From the NCBI GenBank assembly GCA_016432285.1, contig CP066682.1:439072-503071 (forward strand): a stretch of DNA of 64,000 nucleotides. Direction: 5' to 3'. This DNA comes from Candidatus Kaiserbacteria bacterium. GTDB lineage: Bacteria; Patescibacteriota; Minisyncoccia; Phycocordibacterales; UBA2100. Below, in pieces: positions 914-60,995 of the stretch. Every line of letters begins with the position of its first letter. Position 1 is the first letter of the stretch. Both the position numbers and the translations under genes were made by a program. The notes under the pieces are model-generated. The model ran no database searches and was not told the origin of the DNA. It was given only the letters and a program-made list of their open reading frames with translations.

Positions 914-1969
914 ATGACTACTGTACAAAAGACAGCAGCAGGCGCAGCGCTCGCATTCGCCCTCACGGCAGGTGTGGCACTCGCGCAGACGGTACCGACG
1001 GTAACCGTCACTCCGATCCAGCCGTCGACGGCGATCGCTCCCGGGACGCAGGGCGCGACTGTTTCGACGATCAGCTTCTCGGCCAGCCAGCCGGGCACCT
1101 ACCGCGTCGCGTCGATCCAGCTTGGACTGACGCCGACCGGAGGCGGACTCGTAACGAACCTCACCGGCTGCCAGGCCTTCAACACCTCGGGCCAGGCGAT
1201 CTCGGGCACGTTCGATGCGGCCACCGGCAACATGATCAGCTTCAACGCTCCGCTTGAGGTAACCGGCGGCACCAACATGCCGATCACCTTGCGCTGCAAC
1301 GTCGCCACGTCGACCCCGGTCGGCTCGATGTTCCAGTTTACGGGCGGCGCGGTCACCTTCGCGCCGACCTTGCGCGTCAACCTCGCGGTCTCGCCGAGCC
1401 TCGTGCCCGGCCAGCAGAACGCGGCGGTTGCGCTCCTCACGCTCGACGCCACCCGCTCTGGGCAGCCGATCCGGCTCTCCTCGATCCCGGTGAGCGCGAG
1501 CTTCACGGGCGCGTCGAACCTCACGAGCTGCCAGGTGCGCAGCATCAACAACCTCGCGGGCGCGCTCAATACGGGCGCGAACGTTGTGAGCACGATCGGC
1601 AGCGGCACGAACACCTTCAATCTCGACGCTCCGCTTGTGGTGAGCGCGGGCACATCGATGACGCTCGTCCTCACCTGCAACGTTGCGTCGGCGGCTCCCC
1701 TGGGTAGCACGGTGTCGTTTGCGGTGAGTCCGTCGGTCTTCCCGGCGCTCTCCGACACGACCGGCACCGCGGCCACCACGCTTGCGGGCGGCCCGAACGG
1801 CGCCACGGGCATCACCGCCGGCACGGCGACCTTCGGCACCTCAGCCACGCCGGGCGTACCGAGCACTGGTGAGGGAGGCAACGCGGCAGCGACCGCGATC
1901 TTCCTCGCGGCGCTCCTCGCGGTAGCGGCAGGCGGTACGGGACTCCTCGTAAAGAGGGCTCTCCGATAA
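914..1969 (+). CDS. secreted cell-surface protein with sortase-type C-terminal sorting signal (VPSTG + hydrophobic segment + KRALR)
   Basis: N-terminal signal peptide (AALAFALTAGVALAQT). Two internal ~120-aa repeats, each with a conserved Cys pair (LTGCQ...LRCNVA / LTSCQ...LTCNVA). C-terminus VPSTGEGG...AIFLAALLAVAAG...KRALR resembles an LPXTG sorting signal. Confidence 0.6.
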   Translation: MTTVQKTAAGAALAFALTAGVALAQTVPTVTVTPIQPSTAIAPGTQGATVSTISFSASQPGTYRVASIQLGLTPTGGGLVTNLTGCQAFNTSGQAISGTFDAATGNMISFNAPLEVTGGTNMPITLRCNVATSTPVGSMFQFTGGAVTFAPTLRVNLAVSPSLVPGQQNAAVALLTLDATRSGQPIRLSSIPVSASFTGASNLTSCQVRSINNLAGALNTGANVVSTIGSGTNTFNLDAPLVVSAGTSMTLVLTCNVASAAPLGSTVSFAVSPSVFPALSDTTGTAATTLAGGPNGATGITAGTATFGTSATPGVPSTGEGGNAAATAIFLAALLAVAAGGTGLLVKRALR

Positions 1970-2375: not shown

Positions 2376-2392
2376 GCACTCAATCTGTTTTT

Positions 2393-2430
2393 GAAGCCAA
2401 AAGCCGCCCCAGAGGGCGGCTTTTGGCTTC
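2393..2430 (+). terminator. terminator hairpin GAAGCCAAAAGCCGCCC-cagag-GGGCGGCTTTTGGCTTC
   Basis: 17-bp perfect inverted repeat right after the SWIB gene stop. Confidence 0.6.
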
Positions 2431-2467
2431 ACTCTCTCTTCAAGAGCGATTGTGCTAGAGTTGCCGA

Positions 2468-2977
2468 ATGAAAAAAATAGCTCTGTTCGCCCTTTTGGGG
2501 ATCTTCCTCGTGCCCCTCACCGCATCCGCGCAGTACTGGGGGTACAACGGATACAACGCCAACACCAATTCGAATTACAACTACAACGCCAACTACAACT
2601 ACAACGGCAACAACGGCTACAGCAACCCGATGTACCAGCAGATGTACTGGTGCGGCAGCTACTATTCCTACAGCCCGTGCTATTCCTACAGCTCCTACAA
2701 TTACTCTCCCTACTCGTACGGCTACGGCAGTGGGTATGGAAATATGTACGCCGGGGCGACGTACGCATACCCGAGCTACTCGTACTCGTATCCGCAAAGC
2801 TATTCATATCCGCAGAGTTATTCGTATCCGTACAGCTCTGGCTATCCGAGCTACGGCTACCAAAACTACTCGTACCAGAACGATCAATATTGCTACTCGG
2901 GATACGGATGCTATCCATTTGCCGTCGACGATCCGCATCAGTGGGTGTACGACCAGTGGACAGGCACCTGGTATTAA
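2468..2977 (+). CDS. secreted low-complexity Tyr/Ser/Asn/Gly-rich protein
   Basis: Signal peptide (MKKIALFALLGIFLVPLTASA). The mature part is ~30% Tyr with SYSYPQ / NYNYN repeats. Coding-strand GC3 bias is consistent with a real gene. Confidence 0.55.
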   Translation: MKKIALFALLGIFLVPLTASAQYWGYNGYNANTNSNYNYNANYNYNGNNGYSNPMYQQMYWCGSYYSYSPCYSYSSYNYSPYSYGYGSGYGNMYAGATYAYPSYSYSYPQSYSYPQSYSYPYSSGYPSYGYQNYSYQNDQYCYSGYGCYPFAVDDPHQWVYDQWTGTWY

Positions 2978-3135
2978 CGGCTGCCGATAACCCCCAATCT
3001 GCTGCGTAGCGGAGCCTGCGCGTCTTGCATCTCGGGGATTCTCGGCAGCCTTGATGTGTTGACGGCGCAGGATTCTCAATGTCGCACTTCTTCTCCACAT
3101 GCTCTCAATAAGCGCTTTGCTATACTGCGGGCATC

Positions 3136-5610
3136 ATGGCGGCGCGAAAGAGCCGGATTGCAAAAAGCAACCGCACCCGCACGCCCTCCCGCTACGTGAT
3201 CCCCATGGAAGAGGCGGGGATGGATGATGTCGCGCTCGTCGGCGGCAAGAATGCATCCCTCGGCGAGATGCTCCAGGCGCTCACCTCCAAAGGCATCCGC
3301 GTGCCGAGCGGATTCGTGGTAACGGCGGAAGCGTACCGATTTTTCATCGAGGAAGCGGGGCTCGCGAATTTTATCCGCGAGGCGCTCGAAGCCTTGGAGC
3401 ACGGCGATTTGCGACAGCTCGAGAGCGTAAGCGCCGAGGTGCGCGCCCGCATCAAGAGCGCCGCGATGCCAAAAGCGCTCGAGCAGGAAATACGCGCTGC
3501 CTACAGTTCGATGGAAAAAAAATACGGCAGAAATATCGACGTGGCCATTCGCTCGAGCGCGACCGCCGAAGATCTTCCCGACGCGAGCTTCGCGGGAGAG
3601 CACGACACGTACCTCGGCGTTCGGGGCGACAAGGATGTGCTCCGGTCGGTGAAGTCGTGCTTCGCCTCGCTCTTTACCGCCCGCGCGATCAACTACCGCA
3701 TCGACAAGCACTTCGACCACTTTTCGGTTGCGCTCTCGGTGGCGATCCAGCGTATGGTGGCGACCGAAAGCGGCGCCTCGGGCGTCATGTTTACGATCGA
3801 CACCGAGACGGGCTTTCGCGATCTTGTCCTAATCAACGGCTCATGGGGTCTCGGCGAGATGGTCGTCCAGGGGAAGGTGGTTCCCGACGAATTCTTAGTG
3901 GCGAAGCGAATGATCGGCGCAGCTCCCAACCCCTTGATCAGCAAACGGCTCGGAAGCAAGCACGAAAAAATGATTTACACGCAAAAGGGAAGCGTGGGTC
4001 CGACGGAAATCGTGAAAACGTCGCCTGCGGATCGCGCGAGGTTTGTGCTCACCGACAAACAAGCGCTTCAGCTCGCGGCGTGGGGCAAAACGATCGAGGA
4101 GCACTACACCAAAAAGCGTAAGACCTACTCGCCCATGGACATCGAGTGGGGACTCGACGGCAAAACAGGTCAGCTTTTCATTCTCCAGGCGCGGCCCGAG
4201 ACGGTGCAGGTCGGGAAAGACAGAAGCAAGATCAAAGAGTACATCCGCAAGGAAGACGGCGAGGTGCTCGCGAAGGGGCTTTCGGTCGGCAACAAGATCG
4301 TGAGCGGCGTGGCGCGCGTGATCAAGAGCGTCGAAGACATGGAGGATTTGCAGCCCGGAGAGATCCTCATCACCGAAATGACCGACCCCGACTGGGAGCC
4401 GATCATGAAAAAGGCCGGCGCGATCGTTACCGACAAAGGCGGCCGCACCTCGCACGCTGCGATCGTCAGCCGCGAGCTCGGTCTTACCGCCATCGTGGGC
4501 GCCGAGACAGTTACGAAGCACATCAAGACGGGCCAGATGATTACCGTCGATACGACCTCCGCCGAGGGGCAGATCTTCAAGGGTGCGCTGCGATTCGAGG
4601 TGCGCGAGCACAGCGTCGCCGAGATTCCGGCCACCAAGACGAAAATGACCATGAACCTCGCCACCCCGGACACCGCGTTCGAAAAATCGTTTCTCCCGAA
4701 TAGCGGCGTCGGGCTCGCTCGGGAGGAATTTATCATCGCGGCGTCCGTCGGCGTACACCCCCTCGCACTCTTGCACTACAAAGAGCTCGATCCGCACCTC
4801 CAGCGTAAGATCGACGAGCGCACGCGCGGCTGGACCAATCGCAAGGAGTACTACATCGACAACCTCGCGTACGGCATCGCGAAGATCGCGACCGCATTTT
4901 ATCCGAAGCAGGTGATCGTGCGCTTCTCCGACTTTAAGAGCAACGAGTACCGCTCGCTTCTCGGAGGAGATCGCTTCGAGCCGCACGAAGAAAATCCAAT
5001 GCTCGGCTGGCGCGGCGCTGCCCGCTACTACGATCCGAAATTTAAGGAGGCCTTCGCCCTGGAGTGCGCGGCGATGCGGAAGGTGAGGGAGGAGATGGGG
5101 CTTACGAACGTGGTGCCCATGGTGCCCTTCTGCCGCACGCTTGAGGAGGGGGAGAAGGTGCTCGCGGCCATGAGCGAAGCCGGGCTCTATCCGCGGCTCC
5201 TCGCGAAGAGCGCCGCGCAGAAAAAGACGGCAACGCCTGTGATCGTGATGTGCGAGATACCCTCCAACGCGATTCTCGCCGATCAGTTTCTCGATATTTT
5301 CGATGGCATGTCGATCGGCTCCAACGATCTTACGCAGCTCACACTCGGACTCGACCGCGACTCGGGCATCGTCAATCGCGTGGCCGACGAGAACGACCCG
5401 GCGGTGAAAAAGCTGATCGCCGACGTAATCAAGATCTGCACGCGCCGCAAAAAATACGTCGGCATTTGCGGGCAGGCGCCCTCCGACCATCCCGAGTTTG
5501 CGAAGTTCCTCGTGGAGGAGGGGATCGAGAGCATGTCGCTCAATCCGGATTCGATCATCAAGACCACGGTCGCGGTCGCCGCGGTGGAAAAGCGCCTGCG
5601 GCGCAAATAG
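3136..5610 (+). CDS. ppsA: phosphoenolpyruvate synthase (pyruvate, water dikinase)
   Basis: GGKNASLGEM PEP-utilizer N-terminal motif. Phosphohistidine region GGRTSHAAIVSRELG. C-terminal PEP-binding TIM barrel. Alternative start at 3205 (MEEAGMDD) is possible, but TATACT sits 9 nt before the 3136 ATG. Confidence 0.85.
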   Translation: MAARKSRIAKSNRTRTPSRYVIPMEEAGMDDVALVGGKNASLGEMLQALTSKGIRVPSGFVVTAEAYRFFIEEAGLANFIREALEALEHGDLRQLESVSAEVRARIKSAAMPKALEQEIRAAYSSMEKKYGRNIDVAIRSSATAEDLPDASFAGEHDTYLGVRGDKDVLRSVKSCFASLFTARAINYRIDKHFDHFSVALSVAIQRMVATESGASGVMFTIDTETGFRDLVLINGSWGLGEMVVQGKVVPDEFLVAKRMIGAAPNPLISKRLGSKHEKMIYTQKGSVGPTEIVKTSPADRARFVLTDKQALQLAAWGKTIEEHYTKKRKTYSPMDIEWGLDGKTGQLFILQARPETVQVGKDRSKIKEYIRKEDGEVLAKGLSVGNKIVSGVARVIKSVEDMEDLQPGEILITEMTDPDWEPIMKKAGAIVTDKGGRTSHAAIVSRELGLTAIVGAETVTKHIKTGQMITVDTTSAEGQIFKGALRFEVREHSVAEIPATKTKMTMNLATPDTAFEKSFLPNSGVGLAREEFIIAASVGVHPLALLHYKELDPHLQRKIDERTRGWTNRKEYYIDNLAYGIAKIATAFYPKQVIVRFSDFKSNEYRSLLGGDRFEPHEENPMLGWRGAARYYDPKFKEAFALECAAMRKVREEMGLTNVVPMVPFCRTLEEGEKVLAAMSEAGLYPRLLAKSAAQKKTATPVIVMCEIPSNAILADQFLDIFDGMSIGSNDLTQLTLGLDRDSGIVNRVADENDPAVKKLIADVIKICTRRKKYVGICGQAPSDHPEFAKFLVEEGIESMSLNPDSIIKTTVAVAAVEKRLRRK

Positions 5611-6795
5611 CTAGATCGAAGTGCGGCTCACTCGGTACACCGCGCCCGCACGATCGTCCGTGATATAGACGGTGCCGCCCGGTTCGGCGAGCACATCGAC
5701 CGGGCGGCCGATCACGCTGCCTCCCGCCGTAAAACCAGTGAGGAAATCCTGCGGATCGCCCTCCGGTTTCCCCTGCGCGTCGAGCGGGAAGCGCACGACC
5801 TTGTAGCCCGTCGGGACGCTTCTGTTCCATGAGCCGTGATAGGCGACGAGCGCGTCGTACCAGTATTCTTCGGGCCAGCCCTCTTCAGGCACGAATGCAA
5901 TCCCCAGTGGCGCTGAGTGTGCGGGGACGTCGATCATGCTCGGCGAAGGATCCGCAGCAGGCGCACCCGATCCAAAGCTCTCGTCGACTGTATTTTTCCC
6001 GTAGAACCACGGCCAGCCGTACCAGCCGCCTTCGCGAAGGACGTTGATCTCGTCGGGCGGCGTGTCGTCGCCAAGAAGGTCGCGTCCCATGTCGGTGCCC
6101 CAGATCTCGCCGGAAACCGGATGGATTTGCATGAAAACGGTATTACGCAGCCCGGTGGCAAAGGGGCTCATCGCTCCGGTCGCGAGGTCGATCGCCTGCA
6201 CGCTCGCGCGGCGTGAGTCGCTCTCTTCGCACACATTGCAGGAGGAGCCGATCGACACCAGAAGGCGCTTCCCGTCGGGGTGCGGCAAGAGCGTGCGCGT
6301 GAAGTGGCCGCCTCCCGCAGGAAGCGTGGCGAGAGTACGCTGCTCCGACGCCGTGCGGGTGGCAGGGTCGAAACGGTACGCGTTCACCGCATTTTCTTCC
6401 GCAACGTACATGGTGCAGTTGGCGTCGTTTTCATCGCAGTCGACGAAGAGTCCGTGCGGCCGCTGGAGACCCTCGAGCACCGTCTCGCTTTTTTCTGCCA
6501 CCCAATCGCCATCCTCGTCGAGGAGAGCGACGATCTTTCCCTCGCTCGTGAGGCTCGCATAAAACGCCGCGCCGGGCGCGCGCGTGAGGACACGGATACC
6601 GGGCAGATTGTCGGCATAGCGGTAGGCGGCAAATCCCTCCGGCACAGAAAAAGGAAGCGGCTCTCCCGCGGGCGGCAGTGGTGGCGCGGGCCGCACAAGC
6701 GGCAAGAGGCCGCTCAAGAATCCGCGAAGCGGCGAGGCGTACGCGATGAGCCCCAGAATGAGGACGCCGATAAGTATGATGGCGGCTTTTTTCAT
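5611..6795 (-). CDS. PQQ-dependent sugar (glucose/sorbosone) dehydrogenase-like beta-propeller, secreted
   Basis: Signal peptide MKKAAIILIGVLILGLIAYA. Motifs GWYGWPWFYG, GDPQDFLTGF, TDDRAGAVYRV are typical of the YliI/sGDH family. Confidence 0.6.
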   Translation of the reverse strand: MKKAAIILIGVLILGLIAYASPLRGFLSGLLPLVRPAPPLPPAGEPLPFSVPEGFAAYRYADNLPGIRVLTRAPGAAFYASLTSEGKIVALLDEDGDWVAEKSETVLEGLQRPHGLFVDCDENDANCTMYVAEENAVNAYRFDPATRTASEQRTLATLPAGGGHFTRTLLPHPDGKRLLVSIGSSCNVCEESDSRRASVQAIDLATGAMSPFATGLRNTVFMQIHPVSGEIWGTDMGRDLLGDDTPPDEINVLREGGWYGWPWFYGKNTVDESFGSGAPAADPSPSMIDVPAHSAPLGIAFVPEEGWPEEYWYDALVAYHGSWNRSVPTGYKVVRFPLDAQGKPEGDPQDFLTGFTAGGSVIGRPVDVLAEPGGTVYITDDRAGAVYRVSRTSI

Positions 6796-6824
6796 ACGAT
6801 TTTCTCGAAGCTTGCACCAGTATA

Positions 6825-6960
6825 CCCCGTGAGATAAATCCGCTCTTCCTTTGCGGGCGTTCTGTGCCACCCGATCTCACGGGGCTTACCCCGTGAGATA
6901 AATCCGTTTCTCCTTTGCGGGTGTTCTGTGCCGCCTGATCTCACGGGGCCTACCCCCGTG
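6825..6960. repeat. tandem direct repeat, ~65-bp unit x 2.1, each unit containing palindrome CCCCGTGAGAT...ATCTCACGGGG
   Basis: Units at 6825-6889 and 6890-6953 are ~90% identical. A third unit begins at 6953. Located between divergent starts at 6795 (minus strand) and 6994 (plus strand). Confidence 0.8.
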
Positions 6961-6993
6961 GCGCTTCCCAAAGGGTGCGATACAATCATCTGT

Positions 6994-8133
6994 ATGATTC
7001 ATAGCAAGAGTGTGAAGGCCGGTCTCGTTCTCGCAGCGCTTCTCCTCCCGCTCCTCGCGACGGCTGCCGAGTGGAAGACGGGTGAGCAGTTCTCTCTGGG
7101 GAGCAGCGAACGGTACACCGACGACCTCTACATCGCGGGCGGCAACGTAACGACGGCGGCCACGATCAACGGCGACCTTGCGGCGATGGGCGGCAACGTG
7201 CTCGTCAATGGCCCCGTCTCGGGCGATATTTTCGCGGCAGGCGGCAGCGTTACGATCCTCGGATCGGTGGGCGATGACCTCCGGGTCGCGGGTGGCAACA
7301 TCACGATCTCGAGTGCCGTTCGCGGCGATCTCGTCGTCGGCGGCGGCCAGGTCAATATCTCCGGTGAAGGAATCGGTGGCGATGTGCTCGCCGGTACTGG
7401 TGTTCTTCGAATCGACGCGCCCGTGGGGGGAGATGTGGTAATCGGCGGTGGCGAAGTCGTCATCAACGCACCGGTCGGCGGCAACGTGCGATTCGCTGGA
7501 GAAAATCTCACGCTCGGCTCCGGGGCGGTCATTGAGGGCAATCTCTCGTACGCGAGCCCGAAGGAAGCGAAGCTCGAAGAGGGCGCTGTCGTCCGCGGAG
7601 AAACGAGCTACGAACAAACGCAAGACGTGCGCGGCATCGCCGAGAAGGGCTTTCTCGCCTTCATCACGCTCGCCACCATCGGCAAGTTTCTCTCGATCCT
7701 CGCGAGCGCGCTCATCATCGGGCTCGCTTTCAGCAAATACTCCGTGGCACTCGTGGAGGGCGCGATCGCGCGCCCGTGGTTTGAGATGGGTCGCGGGCTC
7801 GTCACGCTGATCCTGCTGCCGGTCTTTTCGATCATTCTCCTCGTGACGGTGCTCGGCATACCGCTCGGGCTCTTGGGCCTCACCGCATTCGTGGCCGCGA
7901 TCATCTTTTCCTCGCTCGTCGCTCCAATCATTCTCGGAAGCCTCTCGTACAAGTGGATCACGCGCACCGGCTACCTCGAAGTGTCGTGGAAGACGATCCT
8001 GCTCGGCGTCGTGCTCTACACGCTGATCGGCCTCGTGCCCTTCATCGGCCCGCTTGTGAAATTCGCGCTCGTGCTGCTGGCGCTTGGCGTAACAGCCAAG
8101 ATCAAATGGGACATCGCCAAATCCTGGCAATAA
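6994..8133 (+). CDS. bactofilin-like (polymer-forming beta-helix repeat) protein with C-terminal multi-TM domain
   Basis: Signal/TM at N-terminus. ~12 degenerate repeats of xGGNVxIxGxVxGDL type. Four hydrophobic helices at C-terminus. TACAAT 7 nt upstream of the ATG. Confidence 0.5.
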   Translation: MIHSKSVKAGLVLAALLLPLLATAAEWKTGEQFSLGSSERYTDDLYIAGGNVTTAATINGDLAAMGGNVLVNGPVSGDIFAAGGSVTILGSVGDDLRVAGGNITISSAVRGDLVVGGGQVNISGEGIGGDVLAGTGVLRIDAPVGGDVVIGGGEVVINAPVGGNVRFAGENLTLGSGAVIEGNLSYASPKEAKLEEGAVVRGETSYEQTQDVRGIAEKGFLAFITLATIGKFLSILASALIIGLAFSKYSVALVEGAIARPWFEMGRGLVTLILLPVFSIILLVTVLGIPLGLLGLTAFVAAIIFSSLVAPIILGSLSYKWITRTGYLEVSWKTILLGVVLYTLIGLVPFIGPLVKFALVLLALGVTAKIKWDIAKSWQ

Positions 8134-16427: not shown

Positions 16428-16574
16428 CCCCATCGGGACGAGCGTCGGTCAGGGCCGAGCTCGTCCCGCGGGGCTGGCGGACGCCGTGTCGGGCGATTAC
16501 GTCCGCGACCGCTAGAGAGACTACTTCGAGCACGCGTTTTGTCAAACACGCCCGGGCGGCTACAATACGCGGGC

Positions 16575-17591
16575 ATGGCATTTTCTTTCGCGCCCAAATT
16601 GGGGATCGATCTCGGCACGACAACGGTTCTCGTTTTTGTGCCGGGCCGCGGCATCGTCCTCAATGAGCCATCGGTCGTCGCTGTCTCGCAGACCGACAAC
16701 AAGATCCTTGCAGTGGGCAACGAAGCCAAGGAGATGGTCGGCCGCACGCCCGACGAAATCATCGCGTACCGGCCCATGAAAGACGGCGTGATCGCCGATT
16801 ACCGCGTGACGGAGGCGATGCTTCGCTACTACATCCGCAAATCGCTCGGCAAGTGGAATCTTTTCAAGCCGGAAGTCATGGTCTCGGTGCCGGCGGGCGT
16901 TACCTCGACCGAACGGCGCGCCGTGGTGGAAGCGGCCACAAAAGCCGGAGCGCGCGAAGCGTACGTGGTGAAGGAGCCGATTCTCGCCGCGATCGGCGCC
17001 GGGATTCCAATCCACGAGGCGCGCGGACACATGATTGTCGACATCGGGGGCGGCACCAGCGACGTGGCCGTGATCTCTCTCGGCGGCATCGTCGCCTCGA
17101 CCTCGGTGAAGTGCGCGGGCAACGCCATGGACCATGCGATCGCCGACTATTTGAAAAAGAATTTCAATCTCGCGGTCGGCGACAAGATGGCCGAACAAAT
17201 CAAGATCCACATCGGCTCCGCCGTCCCCATGGATGAGGAGCTCACGATGACGGTGAAGGGGCGCGATTACCTCACTGGGCTGCCGCGCTCAATCGAGCTT
17301 TCGACTAATGAGGTGGTCCGCGCGATAGGCAGGGAGCTGCGGACGATGGTGAATGCGATGAAAGACGTCTTGCAAGACACACCGCCCGAGCTCGCGGCCG
17401 ACATCATCGACAACGGCATCATTATGACGGGCGGTTCCTCGCTCCTGCGAAATCTCGCCGAGCTCGTCTTTCGGCGCACCGGCGTGAAAGCGCGGGTGGC
17501 CAAAGACGCGCCTTTTTGCGTGGCCAAAGGCACGGGCGAGGCTCTGAAGCACCTCGAAGCATACAAAAAAGCGATCATCACGAAGCGCTGA
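16575..17591 (+). CDS. mreB: rod shape-determining protein MreB (paralog 1)
   Basis: Actin-fold phosphate-1 motif GIDLGTTT. DIGGGTSD. IIMTGGSSLL. TACAAT 8 nt upstream of the ATG at 16575. Confidence 0.85.
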   Translation: MAFSFAPKLGIDLGTTTVLVFVPGRGIVLNEPSVVAVSQTDNKILAVGNEAKEMVGRTPDEIIAYRPMKDGVIADYRVTEAMLRYYIRKSLGKWNLFKPEVMVSVPAGVTSTERRAVVEAATKAGAREAYVVKEPILAAIGAGIPIHEARGHMIVDIGGGTSDVAVISLGGIVASTSVKCAGNAMDHAIADYLKKNFNLAVGDKMAEQIKIHIGSAVPMDEELTMTVKGRDYLTGLPRSIELSTNEVVRAIGRELRTMVNAMKDVLQDTPPELAADIIDNGIIMTGGSSLLRNLAELVFRRTGVKARVAKDAPFCVAKGTGEALKHLEAYKKAIITKR

Positions 17592-21849: not shown

Positions 21850-23130
21850 ATGCGCCAATCGCAGCTCTTCACCAAGACACGCCGCGAGGCACCGAAAGAC
21901 GAAGTGGCGAAAAATGCCCAGCTCCTGATTCGCGGAGGGTTCATCAGTAAAGAGATGGCAGGAGTATACAATTTTCTACCACTCGGTCTTCGAGTGTTCG
22001 AAAAGATCGTGAACGTCATACGAGAGGAGATGAATGCTATCGGTGGTCAAGAGATTTTAATGAGCAGTTTGCAAAGGCGCGAGCTCTGGGAAAAGACCAA
22101 TCGCTGGAACGACGAGGTTGTTGATAATTGGTTTAAGACAGAACTGAAAGATGGCAGCATCGTAGGATTGGGCTTCACTCACGAAGAACCGATTACGAAT
22201 ATGATGGAGCAATTCATTCCGTCATATCAAAACCTCCCCACTTACGTTTACCAGTTTCAAACTAAATTCCGAAATGAGGAGCGGGCAAAAAACGGCCTTC
22301 TGAGAACACGGGAATTCGTGATGAAGGATCTCTATTCTTTTTCTAAAAATGAAACGGAACACGTTGATTTTTACGAAAAGGCCAAAGATGCATACAAGCG
22401 CATTTTTAATCGTCTTGGAATCGGGAATAACACGTATCTTACGTTCGCTTCCGGTGGGTCATTTAGTAAATTCAGTCACGAATTCCAAACGATTTGTGAT
22501 GCAGGAGAAGACGTTATTTATATTCACAAAGATGATTACGGTAAGGGCTTAGAAATGCACCCACACCATGCCGCAATCAATAAGGAAATCTATACGGAAG
22601 ATCTGAAAAAGGATCTTGGACTCGAAGGAAGTTTTATTGAAAAGAAGGTAGTCGAGGTTGGGAATATCTTTACGCTAGGAACTCGCTTCCCAGAAGCGCT
22701 CCTCTGCCGATTTAAGGACGAGCAAGGTAAAGAGAATTACCCGTTCATGGGCTCCTACGGCATCGGCCCGGCGCGGCTGATGGGGACGATCGCCGAAGTG
22801 CTCTCGGACGACCGCGGGCTCGTGTGGCCCGCGGAGATCGCGCCCTTTGCGGTGCATCTCATCGCGATCACGGGCGGCAACGCCGACGTGGCGGCCGAAG
22901 CCGAGCGCTACTTCGAGATGCTGAAGGAGAATCACATCGAAGTGCTCTTCGACGACCGCGACGTGCGGGCGGGCGAGAAATTTGCCGATTCGGATCTTTT
23001 GGGAATCCCGACGAGGCTCGTCGTTTCGGAAAAGACGATGGCCGAGGGCGGTGTGGAAATGGTGAACCGCAAGGACAAGGCGGCGACGATCGTGGCCGAG
23101 AGCGACGTAATCGGACGCCTTTTGAAATAA
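21850..23130 (+). CDS. proS: proline--tRNA ligase (short, archaeal/eukaryote-like class II form)
   Basis: Class II motifs (FRNEER..GLLRTREF; GSYGIG). Anticodon-binding C-terminal domain. ORF extends upstream to 21628, but MRQSQLFTKT at 21850 matches homolog N-termini and the promoter position. Confidence 0.85.
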   Translation: MRQSQLFTKTRREAPKDEVAKNAQLLIRGGFISKEMAGVYNFLPLGLRVFEKIVNVIREEMNAIGGQEILMSSLQRRELWEKTNRWNDEVVDNWFKTELKDGSIVGLGFTHEEPITNMMEQFIPSYQNLPTYVYQFQTKFRNEERAKNGLLRTREFVMKDLYSFSKNETEHVDFYEKAKDAYKRIFNRLGIGNNTYLTFASGGSFSKFSHEFQTICDAGEDVIYIHKDDYGKGLEMHPHHAAINKEIYTEDLKKDLGLEGSFIEKKVVEVGNIFTLGTRFPEALLCRFKDEQGKENYPFMGSYGIGPARLMGTIAEVLSDDRGLVWPAEIAPFAVHLIAITGGNADVAAEAERYFEMLKENHIEVLFDDRDVRAGEKFADSDLLGIPTRLVVSEKTMAEGGVEMVNRKDKAATIVAESDVIGRLLK

Positions 23131-23132
23131 GT

Positions 23133-24203
23133 ATGCGGCGCTTTCGGGAATGGAAAGAAAGAATCCTGGGGTGGTTCTCCAACGACATCGGTATCGATCT
23201 CGGCACCGCCAACACGCTCGTGTACGTCAAAGGTCGCGGCATTGTCATCAATGAGCCGTCGATCGTGGCGATGAATCAAAAGACTGGGCAGGTAGTGGCG
23301 GTGGGGCAGCAAGCCAAGGACATGCTTGGCCGCACGCCGGCGCACATCGTGGCCGTGCAGCCGGTGATCGACGGCGTAATTTCGGACTTTGAAGTTACCT
23401 CCGAGATGCTCTCGTATCTCATCAACAAGGCGCAGGAAGGACACACCAAACTCCTGGGGCCGCGCGTAGCGATCGGCGTGCCTTCGGGCATCACTTCTGT
23501 GGAAGTGCGGGCGGTGCGTGACGCCGCGCGCGCCGCAGGCGCGCGCGAGGTGCACATCATCGAAGAGCCGCTCGCAGCGGCGATCGGCATCGAGCTCCCG
23601 GTGCACGAGCCGCGCGGACACATGATAATCGACATCGGCGGCGGCACCACCGACGTGGGCGTGGTCTCGCTCGGCGGCCTCGTCAACTCGCGCAACATCC
23701 GCATCGCGGGCGATCGGTTCAACGCCGACATCGTCGCTCACACGCGCAACGAATTTAAAATCCTCATCGGCGAAAAAACCTCGGAAGAGATCAAAATGCA
23801 GCTCGCCAACGTGGCTCCCGGCCGCGACCGACTCGAGACCTTGGCGCGTGGCCGCGATTTGGTGACTGGTCTCCCACGCGAGATCGTCGTATCGGATCAG
23901 GACGTCCGCAACGCGATCGGACACTCGGTGGAGGAGCTCGTGGAATCAATCAAGGAAGTGCTCGAAACCACGCCGCCCGAGCTTTTGGCCGACATCATGC
24001 AGCGCGGCATCTATCTCGCGGGCGGCGGGGCGCTGATCCGCGGTCTTCCGGAATTTCTGACCGCGGCGCTCGGCGTGCCGGTCGTGGTGGCGCCGGATCC
24101 GCTCACAGCCGTCGTACGCGGCACGAGCGTTATCCTCGAGGATCTCAATCTGTATCGCGAAGCGCTCCTGAAAAATGATGACGAATTTGTGCCGACAGAG
24201 TAA
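23133..24203 (+). CDS. mreB: rod shape-determining protein MreB (paralog 2)
   Basis: GIDLGTANT, DIGGGTTD, IYLAGGGALI. Start at MRRFREW immediately after the proS stop. Confidence 0.8.
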   Translation: MRRFREWKERILGWFSNDIGIDLGTANTLVYVKGRGIVINEPSIVAMNQKTGQVVAVGQQAKDMLGRTPAHIVAVQPVIDGVISDFEVTSEMLSYLINKAQEGHTKLLGPRVAIGVPSGITSVEVRAVRDAARAAGAREVHIIEEPLAAAIGIELPVHEPRGHMIIDIGGGTTDVGVVSLGGLVNSRNIRIAGDRFNADIVAHTRNEFKILIGEKTSEEIKMQLANVAPGRDRLETLARGRDLVTGLPREIVVSDQDVRNAIGHSVEELVESIKEVLETTPPELLADIMQRGIYLAGGGALIRGLPEFLTAALGVPVVVAPDPLTAVVRGTSVILEDLNLYREALLKNDDEFVPTE

Positions 24204-24239: not shown

Positions 24240-25049
24240 ATGAAGAAGTCCAACTTTTCTTTCTCGCACGCGAGTAAAACGCGGGGCACTCGCAAGCGCC
24301 TCTTTGCCGCCACAGTGCTTGTGCTCCTCATTCTCTTCGCGGACCTTCTTTCCGGCGGCGCCATCCGGGCGATGGTGCGCGGCGCGTACGTGCGCGTGTG
24401 GAGCGCCGGCTCTGGCGTTGTGAGCGGGATCTTTGAGAGCGGCTTCTTTTCGACAAGGCGGGCCCTGGAGCGTGAGAACGGGAGTCTCCGCGAACGGCTC
24501 TCGGAGCTTGAGACGAAGAGCGCCAGCTTTTCGGTGCTCCGGCAGGAAAACGATTCGCTCCGCTCACTCCTCAAGGTAGCCGAGCGCGCGCCCGGGATTA
24601 CCGCTTCGATCGTTTCGTCGGTGCGCAGCTCTCCGTACGGCACCTTCCTCATCGGTGCGGGATCCGAAGATGGTGTGGCTCCTGGAAGCTTGGTGCTCGC
24701 CGCGGATTCCGCGGGCGACGGATTCGTGCTTGGTGTTGTGCAAGAGGCAGACGCGCGCACTGCGCTCGTGAAGGAGCTCTTTGGGCCCGGTATCAGCACC
24801 GAGGCGAGCGTGCGCGGCGCGAGCGTGGTGGTGGAAGGGCAAGGAGGCGGCAACGCGAGGGCTGAGGCGCCTCGCAATCTCCCGGTCGTCGCAGGAGACC
24901 CGGTCACGGCGCCTTCGCTCGGCGGCTATCCAATCGGGGTTGTCGGAGCCGTCAAGACGGAAGCTTCGAGCGCAGAGAGCGATGTGTACATCGGCCTTCC
25001 CGTATCGCTCGCGGGGCTCTCGTTCGTGTATGTCGTTGCTCAATACTAA
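24240..25049 (+). CDS. mreC: rod shape-determining protein MreC
   Basis: N-terminal TM. Coiled-coil LRERLSELE...LRQENDSLRSLL. C-terminal beta domain. Position after mreB. Confidence 0.75.
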   Translation: MKKSNFSFSHASKTRGTRKRLFAATVLVLLILFADLLSGGAIRAMVRGAYVRVWSAGSGVVSGIFESGFFSTRRALERENGSLRERLSELETKSASFSVLRQENDSLRSLLKVAERAPGITASIVSSVRSSPYGTFLIGAGSEDGVAPGSLVLAADSAGDGFVLGVVQEADARTALVKELFGPGISTEASVRGASVVVEGQGGGNARAEAPRNLPVVAGDPVTAPSLGGYPIGVVGAVKTEASSAESDVYIGLPVSLAGLSFVYVVAQY

Positions 25050-25306: not shown

Positions 25307-27010
25307 GTGGCTGGCATGTGGGGAAAGCGGAGAAGCGTGCGAGAAATTCAGCCGGACGAAATTTTTCTCGATTCCACCAATCTTCCCGGTCGCAACGATC
25401 CGCAGTTTGAGGGCAGGGTCGTGCGTCCCGTATCGAGCCGCGCGATGTTTGGCGTGGGTGCGGTCTTCGCGATTGCTATCCTCTTTTTTGCGGCGCGAGC
25501 CTTTGAGCTCTCGGTGGTGCACGGCGAAGATTACGCCGAGGTCTCGCAAGAAAATCGGCTCGATCGATCGATCGTCTTTTCCACGCGCGGCGTGATCTAC
25601 GACCGCACCGGCAAAGAGCTCGCCTGGAACGAATCCGCCGCGCTCTCAGAGGCCTCGACGACCCCATACGCGTTGCGGCGCTACGCCGATCTTCCGGGTC
25701 TCTCGCACGTGCTTGGATTCGTACGCTATCCGAAGGCCGACGCGAGCGGCAACTGGTGGCGCACCGAGTACAGCGGCGTGGCAGGCTCCGAGCAGGCGTT
25801 TAACGATGCTCTTGCTGGGCTAAACGGCAGCAGAATGGTGGAGATCGACGCGCTCGGCAACGTGGAGATGCAAAACATCATCGAGCCGCCCGTGCCTGGT
25901 CGCGACATCACGCTTTCGATCGATGCGGAGATACAAAGCAAACTTTTTTCGGCACTCTCGACTCAGGCGCGGGCCCAAGGGTTCGAGGGAGGTGCGGCGG
26001 TGATTATGGACGTGCGCACGGGCGAGCTTTTGGCGCTCACGAGCTTTCCGGAATACGACAACGCCGGCTTTACCGAGGGCGACGCCGCAGCGATCGATGC
26101 GGCGCACGGGAGCGACAACTCGCCGCTCTTGGACCGAGCCACGAGCGGTCTCTACGCGCCGGGATCGATCGTGAAGCCGATCTTTGCCGCCGCCGCGCTA
26201 AACGAAGGCATCATCAGCCCCGAAAAGAAGATACAGTCGACCGGCGCGATTACGATTCCAAATCCGTATAATCCCGACAATCCCTCGATCTTCCGCGACT
26301 GGACCGTGCACGGATGGATCGACATGCGCGAGGCGATCGCCGTATCGTCCGACGAATACTTCTACACCATCGGCGGCGGCTTCGGCTCGCAGGTGGGGCT
26401 CGGGATCGCGCGCCTCGACGAGTATGCTCGCGACTTCGGTCTCGGCACCTCCACCGGCTTTACGATCTTCGGCGAAGAAGTCGGCGTCATACCGACGCCG
26501 GAGTGGAAGGAGAAGGTCTTCGGCGAGGACGATCCGTGGCGCATCGGCAACACGTATCACACGGCCATCGGGCAGTTCGGCTTTCAGATCACGCCCCTCC
26601 AAGCCGTGCGCTTCGTGGCTGCTATCGGCAACGGCGGCAAGCTCCTCACGCCGCAGATACTCGCTGGCGCAAAACCGGAGTACACGAGCGTCGGGGTCCC
26701 TGACGAATACCTCCAGATCGTGCGCGAAGGCATGCGCCTCGCCGTCACCTCTACCCGATCCGACGCGACCGTCAAATCACTGAGCATTCCGGGGATACAA
26801 ATCGCTGCCAAAACGGGAACGGCGCAGATCGGCACGCAGAATCAGTACATGAATTCCTGGTCGATCGGATTCTGGCCCGCTGATAATCCGCACTACGCGT
26901 ATGCAGTGGTGCTCGAAAAAGCACGCGCGGGCACGCTCTCCGGCGCCGCGCCCGGCTTCCGGCCGTTTGTGGAGTGGCTGATTGCCAATCGTCCGGAATA
27001 CATCGAATGA
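25307..27010 (+). CDS. mrdA: penicillin-binding protein 2 (elongasome transpeptidase)
   Basis: N-terminal TM. Dimerisation domain. Transpeptidase motifs SxxK (GSIVK), SxN (SSD), KTG (KTGTAQ). TATAGT 7 nt upstream. Confidence 0.8.
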   Translation: MAGMWGKRRSVREIQPDEIFLDSTNLPGRNDPQFEGRVVRPVSSRAMFGVGAVFAIAILFFAARAFELSVVHGEDYAEVSQENRLDRSIVFSTRGVIYDRTGKELAWNESAALSEASTTPYALRRYADLPGLSHVLGFVRYPKADASGNWWRTEYSGVAGSEQAFNDALAGLNGSRMVEIDALGNVEMQNIIEPPVPGRDITLSIDAEIQSKLFSALSTQARAQGFEGGAAVIMDVRTGELLALTSFPEYDNAGFTEGDAAAIDAAHGSDNSPLLDRATSGLYAPGSIVKPIFAAAALNEGIISPEKKIQSTGAITIPNPYNPDNPSIFRDWTVHGWIDMREAIAVSSDEYFYTIGGGFGSQVGLGIARLDEYARDFGLGTSTGFTIFGEEVGVIPTPEWKEKVFGEDDPWRIGNTYHTAIGQFGFQITPLQAVRFVAAIGNGGKLLTPQILAGAKPEYTSVGVPDEYLQIVREGMRLAVTSTRSDATVKSLSIPGIQIAAKTGTAQIGTQNQYMNSWSIGFWPADNPHYAYAVVLEKARAGTLSGAAPGFRPFVEWLIANRPEYIE

Positions 27011-42275: not shown

Positions 42276-42305
42276 GAACCCAACATATTTTATACTCGCA
42301 GCGAT

Positions 42306-42377
42306 GGCCCTATCGTCTATCGGCTAGGACGTGACCTTCTCAAGGTCAAGAGCGGGGTTCGATTCCCCGTAGGGTCA
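42306..42377 (+). tRNA. tRNA-Glu(CUC)
   Basis: Acceptor GGCCCTA/TAGGGTC. Anticodon stem TGACC/GGTCA. Loop UUCUCAA. T-arm CGGGG-TTCGATT-CCCCG. Confidence 0.75.
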
Positions 42378-42459
42378 TGAATACCAAAAGTTCGCAGCGC
42401 CGCTGCGGCTTTTTTGGTATTCGCGGGTTCCATGCGGGGAATCGAAAGACGGAGGCGGG

Positions 42460-48463: not shown

Positions 48464-49060
48464 ATGCAGCAAAATAACCAGGTATGGGTGGGCGGAATCG
48501 CGCTTGCGATCGTCGCCGTCTTGGGCTTGTGGTGGCTCGCCGCGAGCCAGGGCGTCAATCTCGCAGGTCTCAATCTTCCTCCGCGCATCGACACTGCAAC
48601 GACGCCGGGGAACGGCACCGGGAGCGGTGATAGCACCGTCAGCACGAGCAATAGGGCCGGAAGCGACGTGCTTTCGATCGTGCGCAGCATCGAAGGGGGC
48701 TCGGAGTTTTCGGCCCTCCTTTCATCGACAGGAGTTTCCTCGCAAATCCGCCGCACGGGGCAGTACACGATTTTCGTACCGACCAACAGTGCCCTCAACA
48801 CTTCCGGCATGACGGCCGCCGAAAAGAAGCGCCTCGCGCAGTATCACGTGGTCTCCGGGAGAGCGATCGATCCGGACGCTGTCTCGAGCGGAACGATCGA
48901 GACGCTTTCGCGCGACAGCGTCAACTTTACCGTCAATGACACCGACGGCACCGCGCGGATCAACAGCTCCTACATCATCCGTGCGTATCGGGGCACCAAT
49001 GGCGTGGTTTTCCTCGTGAGCGGGTACCTGATTCCGCCCGAGCCGAATCCTGCGTTTTAA
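48464..49060 (+). CDS. fasciclin (FAS1) domain secreted protein
   Basis: TM/signal. FAS1 motifs TIFVPTNSAL and VVFLVSGYLIP. Confidence 0.65.
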   Translation: MQQNNQVWVGGIALAIVAVLGLWWLAASQGVNLAGLNLPPRIDTATTPGNGTGSGDSTVSTSNRAGSDVLSIVRSIEGGSEFSALLSSTGVSSQIRRTGQYTIFVPTNSALNTSGMTAAEKKRLAQYHVVSGRAIDPDAVSSGTIETLSRDSVNFTVNDTDGTARINSSYIIRAYRGTNGVVFLVSGYLIPPEPNPAF

Positions 49061-50804: not shown

Positions 50805-51197
50805 ATGGAAAACGAATACGCGCACGCACTTGCCGAGATGATCGAAAAGGGGATGAGTCCCGCGAAGGCCGTGGGTGAGCTTCACAAAACGCTCCTTGCG
50901 CACGGGCGCGAGGCGCTCTTGCCGCGCATTGGTCGCGCCTTTGCTCGCATCGCTGCCCGCAAGAGGCTAAAAAGCGAGCTGCGCCTTACGGTCGCCACAG
51001 AGGGCGATGCGCGGCAAGCCGAACGCGAAGCAAAGGCCACGCTCACGGATCTCGACGTCGATTCCGCTGATCTGGAGACTGTCGTCGATGGGAGCCTCAT
51101 CGGCGGGTGGCGCCTCGAAGGCCGGGAACGCCTCGTGGATGCGAGCTACAAAAAATATCTTCTCGACATTTATCACCGCGCCACGGGTGCTGTATAA
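50805..51197 (+). CDS. atpH: F0F1 ATP synthase subunit delta (short)
   Basis: Position between b and alpha. OSCP-like C-terminal LIGG...LVDASYK. Confidence 0.65.
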
Positions 51198-51211
51198 TCG
51201 CTTTTTCACGT

Positions 51212-52780
51212 ATGGACGCCGCAACAGTGCAAAAAATCGTTCGCGAAATCGAAAAGTTCGTGCCCGCAACGGAGAGTGAACATGTGGGCCGCGTGGTCTC
51301 GGTGGGCGATGGCGTCGTCGCGATCGACGGCCTCTCCAAAGCGGTGATGGGCGAAATCGTCCACTTCGAAGAAAATAAGGGGAAGAAACTCGCCGATGCG
51401 ATGAAAGACGGGGGCGCGATCCAGGGGCTCATTCTCAATCTTGAGGAAGACGGCGTTATGGCGGCAGTCCTCGGGGACACGGCGCGCGTGCAGGAAGGTA
51501 TGACCGTGAAATCGACCGGCAAGATTCTCGAAGTCGCTTCCGGCGATGAGCTCTTGGGGCGCGTGGTGAATGCGCTTGGTGAACCAATCGACGGCAAAGG
51601 CCCTTTCAAGAAGCCGACCATGATGCCCGTGGAGCGACAGGCTTCGGGTGTGATCGATCGACAATCTGTGAGCGTGCCGCTTCAGACTGGCATCAAGGCG
51701 ATCGACGCCATGATCCCGATTGGTCGCGGCCAACGCGAGCTGATCATTGGAGACCGAGGCACCGGCAAGACGACGGTCGCGATCGACACGATTTTGAACC
51801 AGAAGAACGAACCGAAAGAGCGGCGCCCGATCTGCATCTACGTGGCGATCGGCCAGAAGGAATCGAAGACCGCGCGCATCACGCAGCAGCTTCGCGAGGC
51901 CGGGGCCCTCGAGTATTCGATCATCGTCGATGCTCCCGCCTCTGCCCCGGCCGCTCTGCAATTTCTCGCGCCGTTCGCGGGCGTTGCCATCGGAGAATAT
52001 TTCATGGACGCGGGGCGCGACGTGCTGATCGTTTACGACGATCTCTCGAAGCAGGCCGTAGCCTACCGCCAGCTCTCGCTCCTTTTGCGCCGTCCGCCGG
52101 GCCGCGAAGCATACCCAGGCGACATTTTCTATCTCCACTCGCGCCTTCTTGAGCGATCGGCGCGCCTTTCTGAAGAAAAGGGTGGCGGCTCCATCACCGC
52201 GCTTCCCATCATCGAAACGCAGGAAGGCGACGTCTCCGGTTACATCCCGACCAACGTCATTTCGATCACCGACGGACAGATGTTTCTCATCACGGATCTT
52301 TTCAACAAAGGCATCCGGCCGGCGATCGACGTGGGTATCTCCGTCTCACGCGTGGGCTCTGCCGCGCAAACGAAAGCGATGAAAGCGGTTGCGGGCGGCA
52401 TCAAGCTGGAGCTCGCGCAGTTTCGAGAGCTGGAGGCCTTTATGCAGTTCGCGTCTGATCTCGATAAAGAAACGGCCGACCGCATCGAATCGGGCCGCCG
52501 CATGGTAGAGGTGCTGAAGCAGAAGAACGGCGCGCCGATTCCGCTCGAAAAGCAGGTGGCCGCCATCTACGCCGCCAACCAGAAGTTTTTTCTCGCGGTG
52601 CCCGTGGGGAAGGTAACGGCTGTGGAGCAGCTCTTCGTCGATTTTCTCGACGCGCAGCACAAGAAGACGCTCGACGAGATCAAGAAGAGCGCACAGCTTT
52701 CTGACGAATCGAAGAAGGATCTCAATAAGGCAATGGAAGAATTCCGTCTCGCGCACCCGGAGCACTTCGCCTCGAAATAG
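51212..52780 (+). CDS. atpA: F0F1 ATP synthase subunit alpha
   Basis: P-loop GDRGTGKT. 523 aa. TATAAT 15 nt upstream. ORF 51107 is an upstream extension. Confidence 0.9.
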
Positions 52781-52781
52781 A

Positions 52782-52810
52782 AATATGGACATTCGATGTC
52801 CATATTTTCT
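52782..52810. repeat. 29-bp perfect palindrome GAAATATGGACATTCGATGTCCATATTTT (copy 2; copy 1 at 8468-8496)
   Basis: Exact match to 8468-8496. Here it is intergenic between atpA and atpG. Confidence 0.85.
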
Positions 52811-52822
52811 TCATACGTAGCT

Positions 52823-53740: not shown

Positions 53741-53741
53741 C

Positions 53742-54663: not shown

Positions 54664-56452
<1,789 letters not shown>

Positions 56453-56463
56453 ACCGTGCACAT

Positions 56464-60269: not shown

Positions 60270-60995
60270 ATGAACAGACTCACTACAAGATTCGCCCCGG
60301 TCCTCATCATCTTGGCGTTCGCCATTGCGGCTGTTTTGACCTTCGCCACGCCCGCCTTCGCGGACGGCCACTGGTGCGGATCCACATGGTCTTCCTTCCC
60401 GTGCACTTCCTCCGATTGGGGCAACCAGGGGTATCAGGGCTACCAGTGGGGTGCCGGAACGTATCCTGGATATTACGGCTCCACCTACCCGACCTATCCG
60501 AACAATTATTACGGCTACAACCAGTATCCATACAGCTATCAATACCCGTACGGCTACCAGTATCAGTATGGCAACTCGTACTACCAGTACGGCTACAACC
60601 GCCCGACCTGTACGATTTCGTACTCTGCGCAGAACACGTACGGCAATTACTACGGCAACGGCTACTATGGCAACAGCTACTCCGGCAACTCCGGCAACTA
60701 CGGCAATTACGGTTACTACAATCCGGCGCAGCCGATCACGCTCACGTGGACTTCGCAGAACGCCTCCTCGGCGAGCATCACGGGCGTCGGGTCGGTGCAA
60801 ACGAGCGGCTCAATGACGGTCTACCCGGCGGGCAACACGACCTACACGATGACCGTGCAGGGCGCAGGCGGCAGCAACTCCTGCCAGACGGCGTACTATC
60901 CGACACTCCAGTACCAGAGCTATCCGTATGGTTACGGTTACGGGCAGAACTACGGCTATCCGTACTACGGCAACAATTACAACTACGGGTACTAA
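60270..60995 (+). CDS. secreted Tyr/Gly/Asn/Gln-rich low-complexity protein with central Thr/Ser-rich beta segment
   Basis: Signal peptide (AFAIAAVLTFATPAFA). >25% Tyr in YGY/YQY/NYY repeats. Cys near both ends. Paralogous in composition to 2468-2977. Confidence 0.55.
   Translation: MNRLTTRFAPVLIILAFAIAAVLTFATPAFADGHWCGSTWSSFPCTSSDWGNQGYQGYQWGAGTYPGYYGSTYPTYPNNYYGYNQYPYSYQYPYGYQYQYGNSYYQYGYNRPTCTISYSAQNTYGNYYGNGYYGNSYSGNSGNYGNYGYYNPAQPITLTWTSQNASSASITGVGSVQTSGSMTVYPAGNTTYTMTVQGAGGSNSCQTAYYPTLQYQSYPYGYGYGQNYGYPYYGNNYNYGY

Follow-up and report, generated by a model that had tools for sequence, protein, structure and literature searches.

An undescribed family of secreted, tyrosine-rich low-complexity proteins in Candidatus Kaiserbacteria, possibly forming a self-associating surface or matrix material

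Introduction

Eukaryotes make several extracellular materials from proteins in which a signal peptide is followed by low-complexity sequence rich in tyrosine (Tyr). Diatom AC3362, the trematode eggshell, the Gly/Tyr-rich wall proteins of plants and the high molecular weight (HMW) glutenins are of this kind, and in glutenin Cys-bearing termini flank a repeat core of Tyr, Pro, Gln, Ser and Gly. The bacterial functional amyloids (curli CsgA, Fap, TasA) are secreted, self-assembling matrix proteins with imperfect repeats. Mussel foot proteins are 3,4-dihydroxyphenylalanine (DOPA) adhesives which combine high Tyr with high Lys and in which tyrosinase makes the DOPA (PMC4220933), and the oocyst-wall proteins GAM56/82 of Eimeria are Tyr-rich and cross-linked by dityrosine (PMC2726925). 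In eukaryotic RNA-binding proteins, finally, prion-like or FUS-type domains are rich in Ser, Tyr, Gly and Gln, and PMC10888811 and PMC11820118, for example, describe a sticker-spacer grammar for such domains. This work concerns a gene of a Candidatus Kaiserbacteria bacterium located at positions 2468..2977 (+) of a 64,000-nucleotide stretch of contig CP066682.1 (assembly GCA_016432285.1, positions 439,072 to 503,071), here called the window. It encodes a secreted protein, 29% Tyr in its mature form, which belongs to an undescribed family restricted to Candidatus Kaiserbacteria and close relatives and standing outside any named family. The literature yielded nothing relevant on Tyr-rich proteins either in the candidate phyla radiation (CPR) or on bacterial surfaces. 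The role which we tentatively favour, while holding it to be somewhat short of probable, is that of a non-covalently self-associating extracellular or envelope matrix, coat or adhesive layer, in which two small Cys-stapled modules would serve for docking.

With the FUS-type domains the Tyr-rich protein shares a polar, uncharged composition with aromatic stickers and predicted disorder, conservation of composition and not of sequence, and even spacing of the aromatic residues, which are compositional marks of the prion-like class (predicted disorder, polar and aromatic residues with few charges, dispersed aromatics). Unlike those domains, the family is bacterial, by prediction Sec-exported and acting outside the cell, about two to three times richer in Tyr (29-45%), and flanked by disulfide-stapled mini-modules, with no RNA-binding partner domain and no sequence homology. 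The functional amyloids are the nearest bacterial system in role, but they differ in having a dedicated secretion or nucleator operon, in Gln/Asn/Gly/Ala repeats of fixed length where the present protein is dominated by Tyr, and in their host, which for the Tyr-rich protein is presumed to be single-membrane; no Curlin_rpt, Fap or Peptidase_M73/TasA profile matched (Pfam at E<=0.01, NCBIfam at E<=0.1). The eukaryotic Tyr-rich materials are not homologous to the family. They contain 10-20% Tyr, are usually rich in Lys or acidic residues, and depend on tyrosinase, peroxidase or DOPA, whereas the present protein has about 30% Tyr and neither Lys nor Arg. As regards a DOPA adhesive in particular, Tyr is high, Lys is 0 and there is no tyrosinase among the window genes scanned.

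Results

The reading frame runs from ATG to TAA (169 amino acids plus stop) and is a genuine gene selected at the protein level. A search among 5.8 billion proteins returned 16 homologues. Over the last 30 codons, compared in seven distinct genes from related loci, the proportion of differences is 0.72 at synonymous sites (pS), which are thus close to saturation, and 0.115 at nonsynonymous sites (pN; pN/pS ~0.16). Substitutions between these orthologues are concentrated at third positions of the + frame, and one invariant Ser is encoded by AGC as well as by TCN codons; the ratio of pN to pS and the mixed Ser codons show purifying selection on the protein in this frame. The GC content by codon position is 0.35/0.44/0.75, the third-position value (GC3) of neighbouring genes being 0.70-0.84, and the codon preference for Tyr (TAC 72%), Asn, Gln, Ser and Gly is that of the genome, which indicates a native gene and no simple DNA repeat.

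The preliminary description of this DNA had left room for the opposite outcome, namely an open reading frame (ORF) without conservation, or one whose opposite strand is the conserved one. On such an account no functional protein exists, and the frame is held open by repeat DNA rich in Tyr codons or lies opposite to the real gene. Short tandem DNA repeats do exist, and several long ORFs overlap the gene in other frames and on the other strand (2429-2797 (-), 2517-3098 (-) and 2452-3009 (+)). Against it stand, besides the third-position substitutions in the + frame and the genome-typical GC3 and codon use, the conservation as protein of the signal peptide and of both modules described below, and the recovery of the gene, as P0014, from many independent samples (indexed in 34 collection blocks, 24 contigs read). 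The runs SRR12113420 and SRR12113422 contain an identical gene. The artefact account is therefore effectively refuted, its remaining probability being negligible, and the overlapping ORFs are by-products of stop-poor composition.

Residues 1-21 (MKKIALFALLGIFLVPLTASA; 2468..2530, +) form the signal peptide noted in the preliminary description, and have a three-region layout. A positive n-region (MKK) is followed by the hydrophobic core IALFALLGIFLVPL, within the 10-15 residues usual for an h-region, and by TASA/Q, with small residues at -3 and -1 according to the Ala rule; cleavage by signal peptidase I (SPase I) is predicted, by reading the sequence, at ASA/Q. All 16 family members keep the Pro which ends the hydrophobic core (P16) and the Ala in position -1 (A21), in the pattern P-x-x-A-x-A. 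The same reading finds in the protein no lipobox (the first Cys is residue 62), no transmembrane segment and no LPXTG motif, and the chain ends in WTGTWY, without the hydrophobic tail of a sortase substrate. By these features the protein is Sec-exported without a membrane or covalent anchor, with a predicted mature form of about 15.6 kDa.

The approximately 30% Tyr first reported for the mature 148 residues was borne out by counting, which gave 43 Tyr (29.1%), 23 Ser (15.5%), 17 Asn (11.5%), 15 Gly (10.1%), 10 Gln (6.8%), 10 Pro (6.8%), 5 Trp, 4 Cys and 4 Asp. Lys, Arg and Glu are absent and the net charge is about -4. The 39 other genes of the window have a mean of 2.44% Tyr and a maximum of 5.1%, so that the enrichment is about twelve-fold. 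Most of the chain consists of an uncharged low-complexity region of Tyr, Ser, Asn, Gly, Gln and Pro (residues 22-140; 2531..2887, +), in percent Y31 S18 N14 G10 Q7 P7, with one charged residue in 119. The repeats quoted previously are all present (NYNYNA twice, SYSYPQ 2.3 times, and YGYGSGYG). Two of them correspond to 18-nucleotide tandem repeats in the DNA, one of two copies encoding NYNYNA (2576..2611, +), a trace of repeat slippage, and one of 2.3 copies encoding SYSYPQ (2789..2830, +). The region is predicted to be disordered, the AlphaFold2 (AF2) confidence (predicted local distance difference test, pLDDT) being below 50 at residues 47-131.

Tyr residues are spread along this region and avoid each other as direct neighbours. 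One YY pair is seen in the first protein where shuffled sequences give 11.2 (z -4.4), and among 11 other members of its family (family 1) which were tested the avoidance reaches z -3 to -3.6 in six and is weaker in the remaining five. Tyr at lag 2 is mildly enriched (alternating Y-x-Y; z up to 3.8). Across family 1 and the family of the second protein described below (family 2), the low-complexity region varies in length from 9 to 148 residues and conserves its composition but not its sequence. Its Tyr content is 23-33% in most members of family 1; in family 2 it is 30-45%, with the exception of the atypical P0021, which carries a sorting tail. Lys is absent from the region in nearly every member and each region holds 0-8 charged residues. 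The low-complexity region is selected for composition, and the idea that it behaves as a self-associating low-complexity domain is supported by these predicted and compositional features.

The protein has two pairs of Cys, C62/C71 (C-x8-C) and C142/C148 (C-x5-C). They had been placed near both ends of the mature chain, which holds only roughly, as the second pair is close to the C-terminus and the first lies some 40 residues into the chain. In 18 of the 19 members the number of Cys in the mature chain is even, as expected for intramolecular disulfides. The first pair closes a loop at residues 60-71 (YWCGSYYSYSPC; 2645..2680, +), which the protein has in common with the second Tyr-rich protein. 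This 12-residue loop, (P)QMYWCGSYYSYSPC, is found in about half of the family and takes the form TPYWCGSYWSSxPC in family 2. It is present in two copies within one protein in L010 (7884-8462) and P0016, and also in P0034 and P0035. A profile of signal peptide plus loop detected 13 further small (93-143 amino acids) secreted Tyr-rich proteins which have the same loop in other layouts. Judged from these arrangements the YWCG..PC loop behaves as a movable, duplicable module.

The second pair belongs to a C-terminal module (residues 141-169, YCYSGYGCYPFAVDDPHQWVYDQWTGTWY; 2888..2974, +) under strong purifying selection, of which 28 residues, YCYSGYGCYPxxVxDPHQWxYDxWTGTWY-COOH, are almost invariant. 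Mean column identity in the family alignment is 69% in this block and 38% overall. With pLDDT of 76-87 and three short strands in the AF2 model, it is predicted to be a small beta unit. Its profile gave nine matches among 1.84 billion cluster representatives, of which eight are genuine; the ninth, P0031, is a spurious match to a SprB-repeat protein. As far as these profile matches show, the module is confined to a narrow lineage and is always C-terminal in small proteins of this type. Constraint on the protein is strongest in the YWCG..PC loop and in the 28-residue DPHQW module, both small and Cys-stapled, and not in the Tyr repeats. As a separate observation, all 21 distinct C-termini tabulated (loop-bearing set, P0001-P0044) end in Tyr or Trp; such chain ends (window 2972-2974 and 60990-60992 in the two proteins) exceed the expectation from composition, and there is no outer membrane to account for them.

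Neither Tyr-rich protein matches a Pfam family at E<=0.01 or an NCBIfam family at E<=0.1, and no relative of the conserved modules was detected in the PDB. When isolated C-terminal modules and the N-terminal loop were compared with Pfam at E<=10 only chance matches appeared, LZ3wCH (0.19) and Myticin-prepro (0.008, in 2 of 12). Two resemblances to known carbohydrate-binding modules deserve a comment. The C-terminal '...DxWTGTWY' is similar to the 'GW..(D/N)xGxWYY' of the choline-binding repeat CW_binding_1, both being of a short aromatic beta-hairpin type, but the module is present as a single copy, unlike the arrays of about 20-residue repeats in choline-binding proteins. The likeness is not supported statistically either, as 14 C-terminal modules gave no Pfam match at E<=10 and the Foldseek match to LytC has an E of 2.1. 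The loop shares 'WCGS' with hevein (CBM18), but it contains 2 Cys, compared to 6-8 Cys in a domain of 30-43 residues with the pattern CCS.(W/Y)G.CG....YC. A hevein-like chitin-binding loop was rejected as homology, since hhalign against a hevein alignment aligned 5 columns with a probability of 1.4%, and Pfam gave no match.

These resemblances are among the grounds for regarding the protein as a lectin-like adhesin, whose Tyr-rich strands and two aromatic Cys loops would offer flat aromatic surfaces for glycan binding; it would tether the cell rather than build a matrix. The glycan could be the bacterium's own peptidoglycan or wall polymer, or it could be on the surface of a host cell, and CPR bacteria are commonly host-attached. 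The alternation of Y-x-Y, with its enrichment at lag 2, speaks for this reading, as do the match of the loop's 'WCGS' to hevein 'WCGST', the best though non-significant Foldseek match of the C-terminal module, which is the choline-binding-repeat autolysin LytC, and the peptidoglycan genes of the window (penicillin-binding proteins (PBPs), a Mur ligase, MreBC). The five-column hhalign result and the lack of any CW_binding_1 or Chitin_bind_1 match in Pfam, even at E<=10, count against it, and we regard a lectin as unlikely.

Another alternative considers the C-terminal module as the active part of a secreted bioactive peptide (an antimicrobial, a toxin or a signal), with the Tyr-rich part as pro-region or carrier, comparable to the Gly/Tyr-rich antimicrobial peptides of nematodes and arthropods. 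The proteins are indeed small (82-210 amino acids), carry a signal peptide, keep conserved termini stapled by disulfides, and vary in the region upstream of the C-terminal module; in P0008 and P0029 the low-complexity region is very short, which shows that the module can stand almost by itself. Against this, the mature protein lacks Lys and Arg and its net charge is about -4 and not positive, no processing site and no immunity, transporter or modification gene is found nearby, and the Tyr-rich composition is kept in sub-families which lack the C-terminal module. A bioactive peptide appears to us the least probable of the functional alternatives, and very improbable as such.

The second Tyr-rich secreted protein of the window (60270..60995, +) has 241 amino acids and about 23% Tyr in its mature part. 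Its predicted signal peptide (residues 1-31, AFA/D) is followed by the loop HWCGSTWSSFPC (residues 34-45; 60369-60404), a first low-complexity region (residues 46-110), a predicted immunoglobulin (Ig)-like domain at about residues 111-209 with an inserted low-complexity Tyr-rich loop at 125-145, and a second low-complexity tail rich in Tyr and Gln (residues 210-241) ending in YGY. Eleven homologues were found. When the two family alignments were compared by hhalign, the signal peptide and the loop aligned with a probability of 97% and E of 7e-11, values which the shared composition may inflate. The claim that this is a second protein of the same kind therefore holds for composition, signal peptide and loop, but not for the Ig-like domain or for the DPHQW module, which it lacks; the two proteins belong to different sub-families. 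AF2 models a beta-sandwich with pLDDT >90 at approximately residues 111-120 and 150-210. The best Foldseek matches of this domain are surface-layer (S-layer) domains (probability 0.99, E only 0.016-0.03), the closest being the Deinococcus HPI S-layer and archaeal S-layer PKD domains. Unlike the Ig/PKD proteins of S-layers, the second protein has one such domain, with a Tyr-rich loop insertion and Tyr-rich tails, and the domain has no Pfam match. One member of this family, P0021, alone carries a sorting tail (IPYTG, a transmembrane segment and RRRQ), which argues for a cell-wall location of Tyr-rich proteins of this kind.

Two observations concern the surroundings of the second protein and its homologues. 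A 634-amino-acid secreted protein with a long Gly-rich linker (GGGFGAGLGGGLGG...) and no Pfam or NCBIfam match is encoded 1.5 kb upstream (56848-58752, +), and its C-terminal segment resembles the second protein's Ig-like domain. In the related locus L016, a multicopper-oxidase-like gene (Cu-oxidase_3; 5822-7057) is located about 3 kb upstream of the gene for P0026, which is homologous to the second protein; the case is isolated, and would carry weight only if such co-occurrence were general.

The gene of the first protein is monocistronic, a unit of its own between two hairpins. A terminator-like hairpin with an 18-bp stem (2392..2431, +) ends the upstream SWIB gene (2118-2375) and marks the 5' boundary, and immediately after the stop codon a second, long and imperfect hairpin (2979..3050, +; -38 kcal/mol, z -2.8) is likely a terminator or stabiliser and marks the 3' boundary. 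No canonical -35/-10 pair was called upstream of the gene by a consensus promoter scan. By eye a possible extended -10 element, TGcTAGAGT, was noted at 2453..2461 (+), 6 nucleotides before the ATG; were it genuine, the transcript would have no leader or almost none. Similar hexamers stand 6-9 nucleotides upstream of two starts, TATACT before the ATG of the phosphoenolpyruvate (PEP) synthase gene (3121-3138) and TAGAGT before that of the Tyr-rich gene (2453-2470), and at neither start is a Shine-Dalgarno sequence visible, a hint that mRNAs of this organism may have very short leaders or none.

Where the loci of relatives carry host names, these are metagenome-assembled genomes called Candidatus Kaiserbacteria or Kaiserbacteria-like, except that two loci bear the label 'uncultured Saccharibacteria' from third-party annotation. 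In these relatives the orthologue follows a GSDH-like beta-propeller gene and precedes Band_7/DUF2238, with SWIB and PEP synthase upstream of it. The window has the gene between SWIB and PEP synthase and lacks Band_7/DUF2238. Compared with L003, L004 and L008 the segment 2118-8133 is locally rearranged, with a changed position of the Tyr-rich gene, and at the old site (6928-8133) there is a gene for a 401-amino-acid membrane protein with GGDV-type repeats and no Pfam match. DUF8173-annotated genes occur elsewhere in L008 and L016. The neighbourhood is conserved only loosely and yields no functional partner; the genes of the orthologue loci (SWIB, PEP synthase, GSDH, Band_7, DUF2238) are housekeeping genes and provide no operon partner, and the genes of the loop family and of the second-protein family lie in unrelated contexts. 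Neither the window nor 16 related loci contain extra paralogues, and apart from 2468-2977 and 60270-60995 the window has no third ORF of the Tyr-rich secreted kind.

The gene content has a direct bearing on whether the protein might be the substrate of a covalently cross-linked coat, in which laccase, peroxidase or tyrosinase would couple Tyr side chains through dityrosine or DOPA-quinone to give an insoluble shell. Parallels for such a structure are the oocyst walls of coccidia, the eggshells of trematodes and the spore coats of Bacillus. A Tyr-rich secreted substrate is present, its Tyr content is extreme, the paired Cys imply oxidising conditions outside the cell, and the multicopper oxidase gene of L016 is close to that of P0026. 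Tyr-rich wall proteins cross-linked in this way are documented in Eimeria (PMC2726925). However, among the approximately 50 genes scanned in the 64-kb window there is no tyrosinase, laccase, peroxidase or other oxidase, nor a sortase or Dsb gene, and no oxidase, peroxidase or tyrosinase adjoins the orthologues of the first protein. The multicopper oxidase is one case, four genes off, many CPR habitats are anoxic, and Lys is absent from a protein which, as a DOPA adhesive, would be expected to be rich in Lys as well as Tyr (PMC4220933). We consider a cross-linked coat improbable, more so than a lectin.

The window is otherwise ordinary chromosome, with two MreB genes, MreC, PBP2, MraZ-FtsI-MurE, an F-type ATP synthase operon, tRNAs and PEP synthase. 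The two MreB paralogues (16539-17591, + and 22824-24203, +) occur in an ultra-small CPR genome, and the ORF of the second stays open for about 118 codons before the Pfam match begins, indicating a misplaced start or an N-terminal extension; MreC (24240-25049) and a PBP2-type transpeptidase (25307-27010) follow. The ATP synthase operon (51107-56715, +) is interrupted between gamma (52796-53740) and beta (55082-56452) by a gene for a 114-amino-acid protein without Pfam match (53742-54086) and a Ham1/ITPase gene (54079-54663). Directly upstream of the operon is the gene of a fasciclin-domain protein (48464-49060, +), a predicted surface or adhesion domain. A 351-amino-acid secreted protein rich in Ala, Thr, Gly and Val, with two similar halves and no Pfam or NCBIfam match, is encoded at 914-1969 (+); its tail (VPSTGEGG, a hydrophobic segment and KRALR) resembles a sortase signal, and no sortase gene is seen in the window. 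Four tRNAs (Val-CAC, Pro-CGG, Pro-GGG and Ala-CGC) form a tight cluster at 28222-28642 (+), and three more are at 33016-33088 (-), 33465-33538 (+) and 42305-42378 (+).

Discussion

The earlier interpretation of the first protein as a self-assembling or cross-linkable surface component can be maintained in part. The protein is genuine and exported, the Tyr-rich region is of the self-associating type (predicted disorder, no charge, even Tyr spacing), and the second protein is related. The reading as a non-covalent matrix or adhesive, which we prefer to the lectin, the cross-linked coat and the bioactive peptide, is based on the conserved composition, the predicted disorder, the near-zero charge, the even Tyr spacing and the slippage repeats, while the sorting tail of P0021 and the S-layer-like Ig domain of the second protein argue for a location in the envelope.

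In the model we propose, the exported protein would stay at or near the envelope of a bacterium presumed to have a single membrane, and would self-associate by numerous weak contacts (Tyr-Tyr, Tyr-Pro and hydrogen bonds), in which Tyr acts as 'stickers' and Ser, Gly, Asn and Gln as 'spacers'. The product may be a gel-like, condensate or cross-beta coat or matrix, or a glue that attaches the cell to hosts or to other surfaces. Specific docking or nucleation would fall to the two disulfide-stapled aromatic modules, which would contact the wall, the surface of a host or a partner protein, and the second protein would present the same loop and similar Tyr-rich arms flanking an Ig-like surface domain. 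Covalent cross-linking of Tyr is possible in this model and is not required by it.

Several points weigh against this proposal. The AF2 disorder was obtained from an alignment of 16 sequences and is weak evidence. A protein with 29% Tyr and no charge could be just insoluble, or dependent on a partner, and a protease-resistant spacer or a platform for carbohydrate binding would likewise be compatible with the even spacing of Tyr. The modules are without detectable relative, so that their binding role is a guess. Near the gene there is no assembly, secretion or cross-linking partner, its neighbours being housekeeping genes and its position varying among relatives.

A bolder formulation, which we offer as speculation and think more likely wrong than right by a wide measure, would see in this family the first bacterial extracellular counterparts of prion-like (FUS-type) domains, free of charge and with 30-45% Tyr, which condense or gel through evenly spaced Tyr stickers and are nucleated or docked by the two modules. 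They would then form the coat or the attachment glue of CPR cells, possibly holding an episymbiont to its host.

The CPR, or Patescibacteria, represent a large share of bacterial diversity, and little is known of what their surfaces are composed of and how they stick to hosts and particles. The Tyr-rich family is a concrete candidate for a surface or matrix component of such cells. Should the proteins not self-assemble, the 28-residue module and the 12-residue loop would still define new small folds or binding motifs. Should they do so, Tyr-based 'sticker-spacer' assembly would reach beyond the cytoplasm of eukaryotes to the outside of bacterial cells, and a very simple protein material would be on offer.

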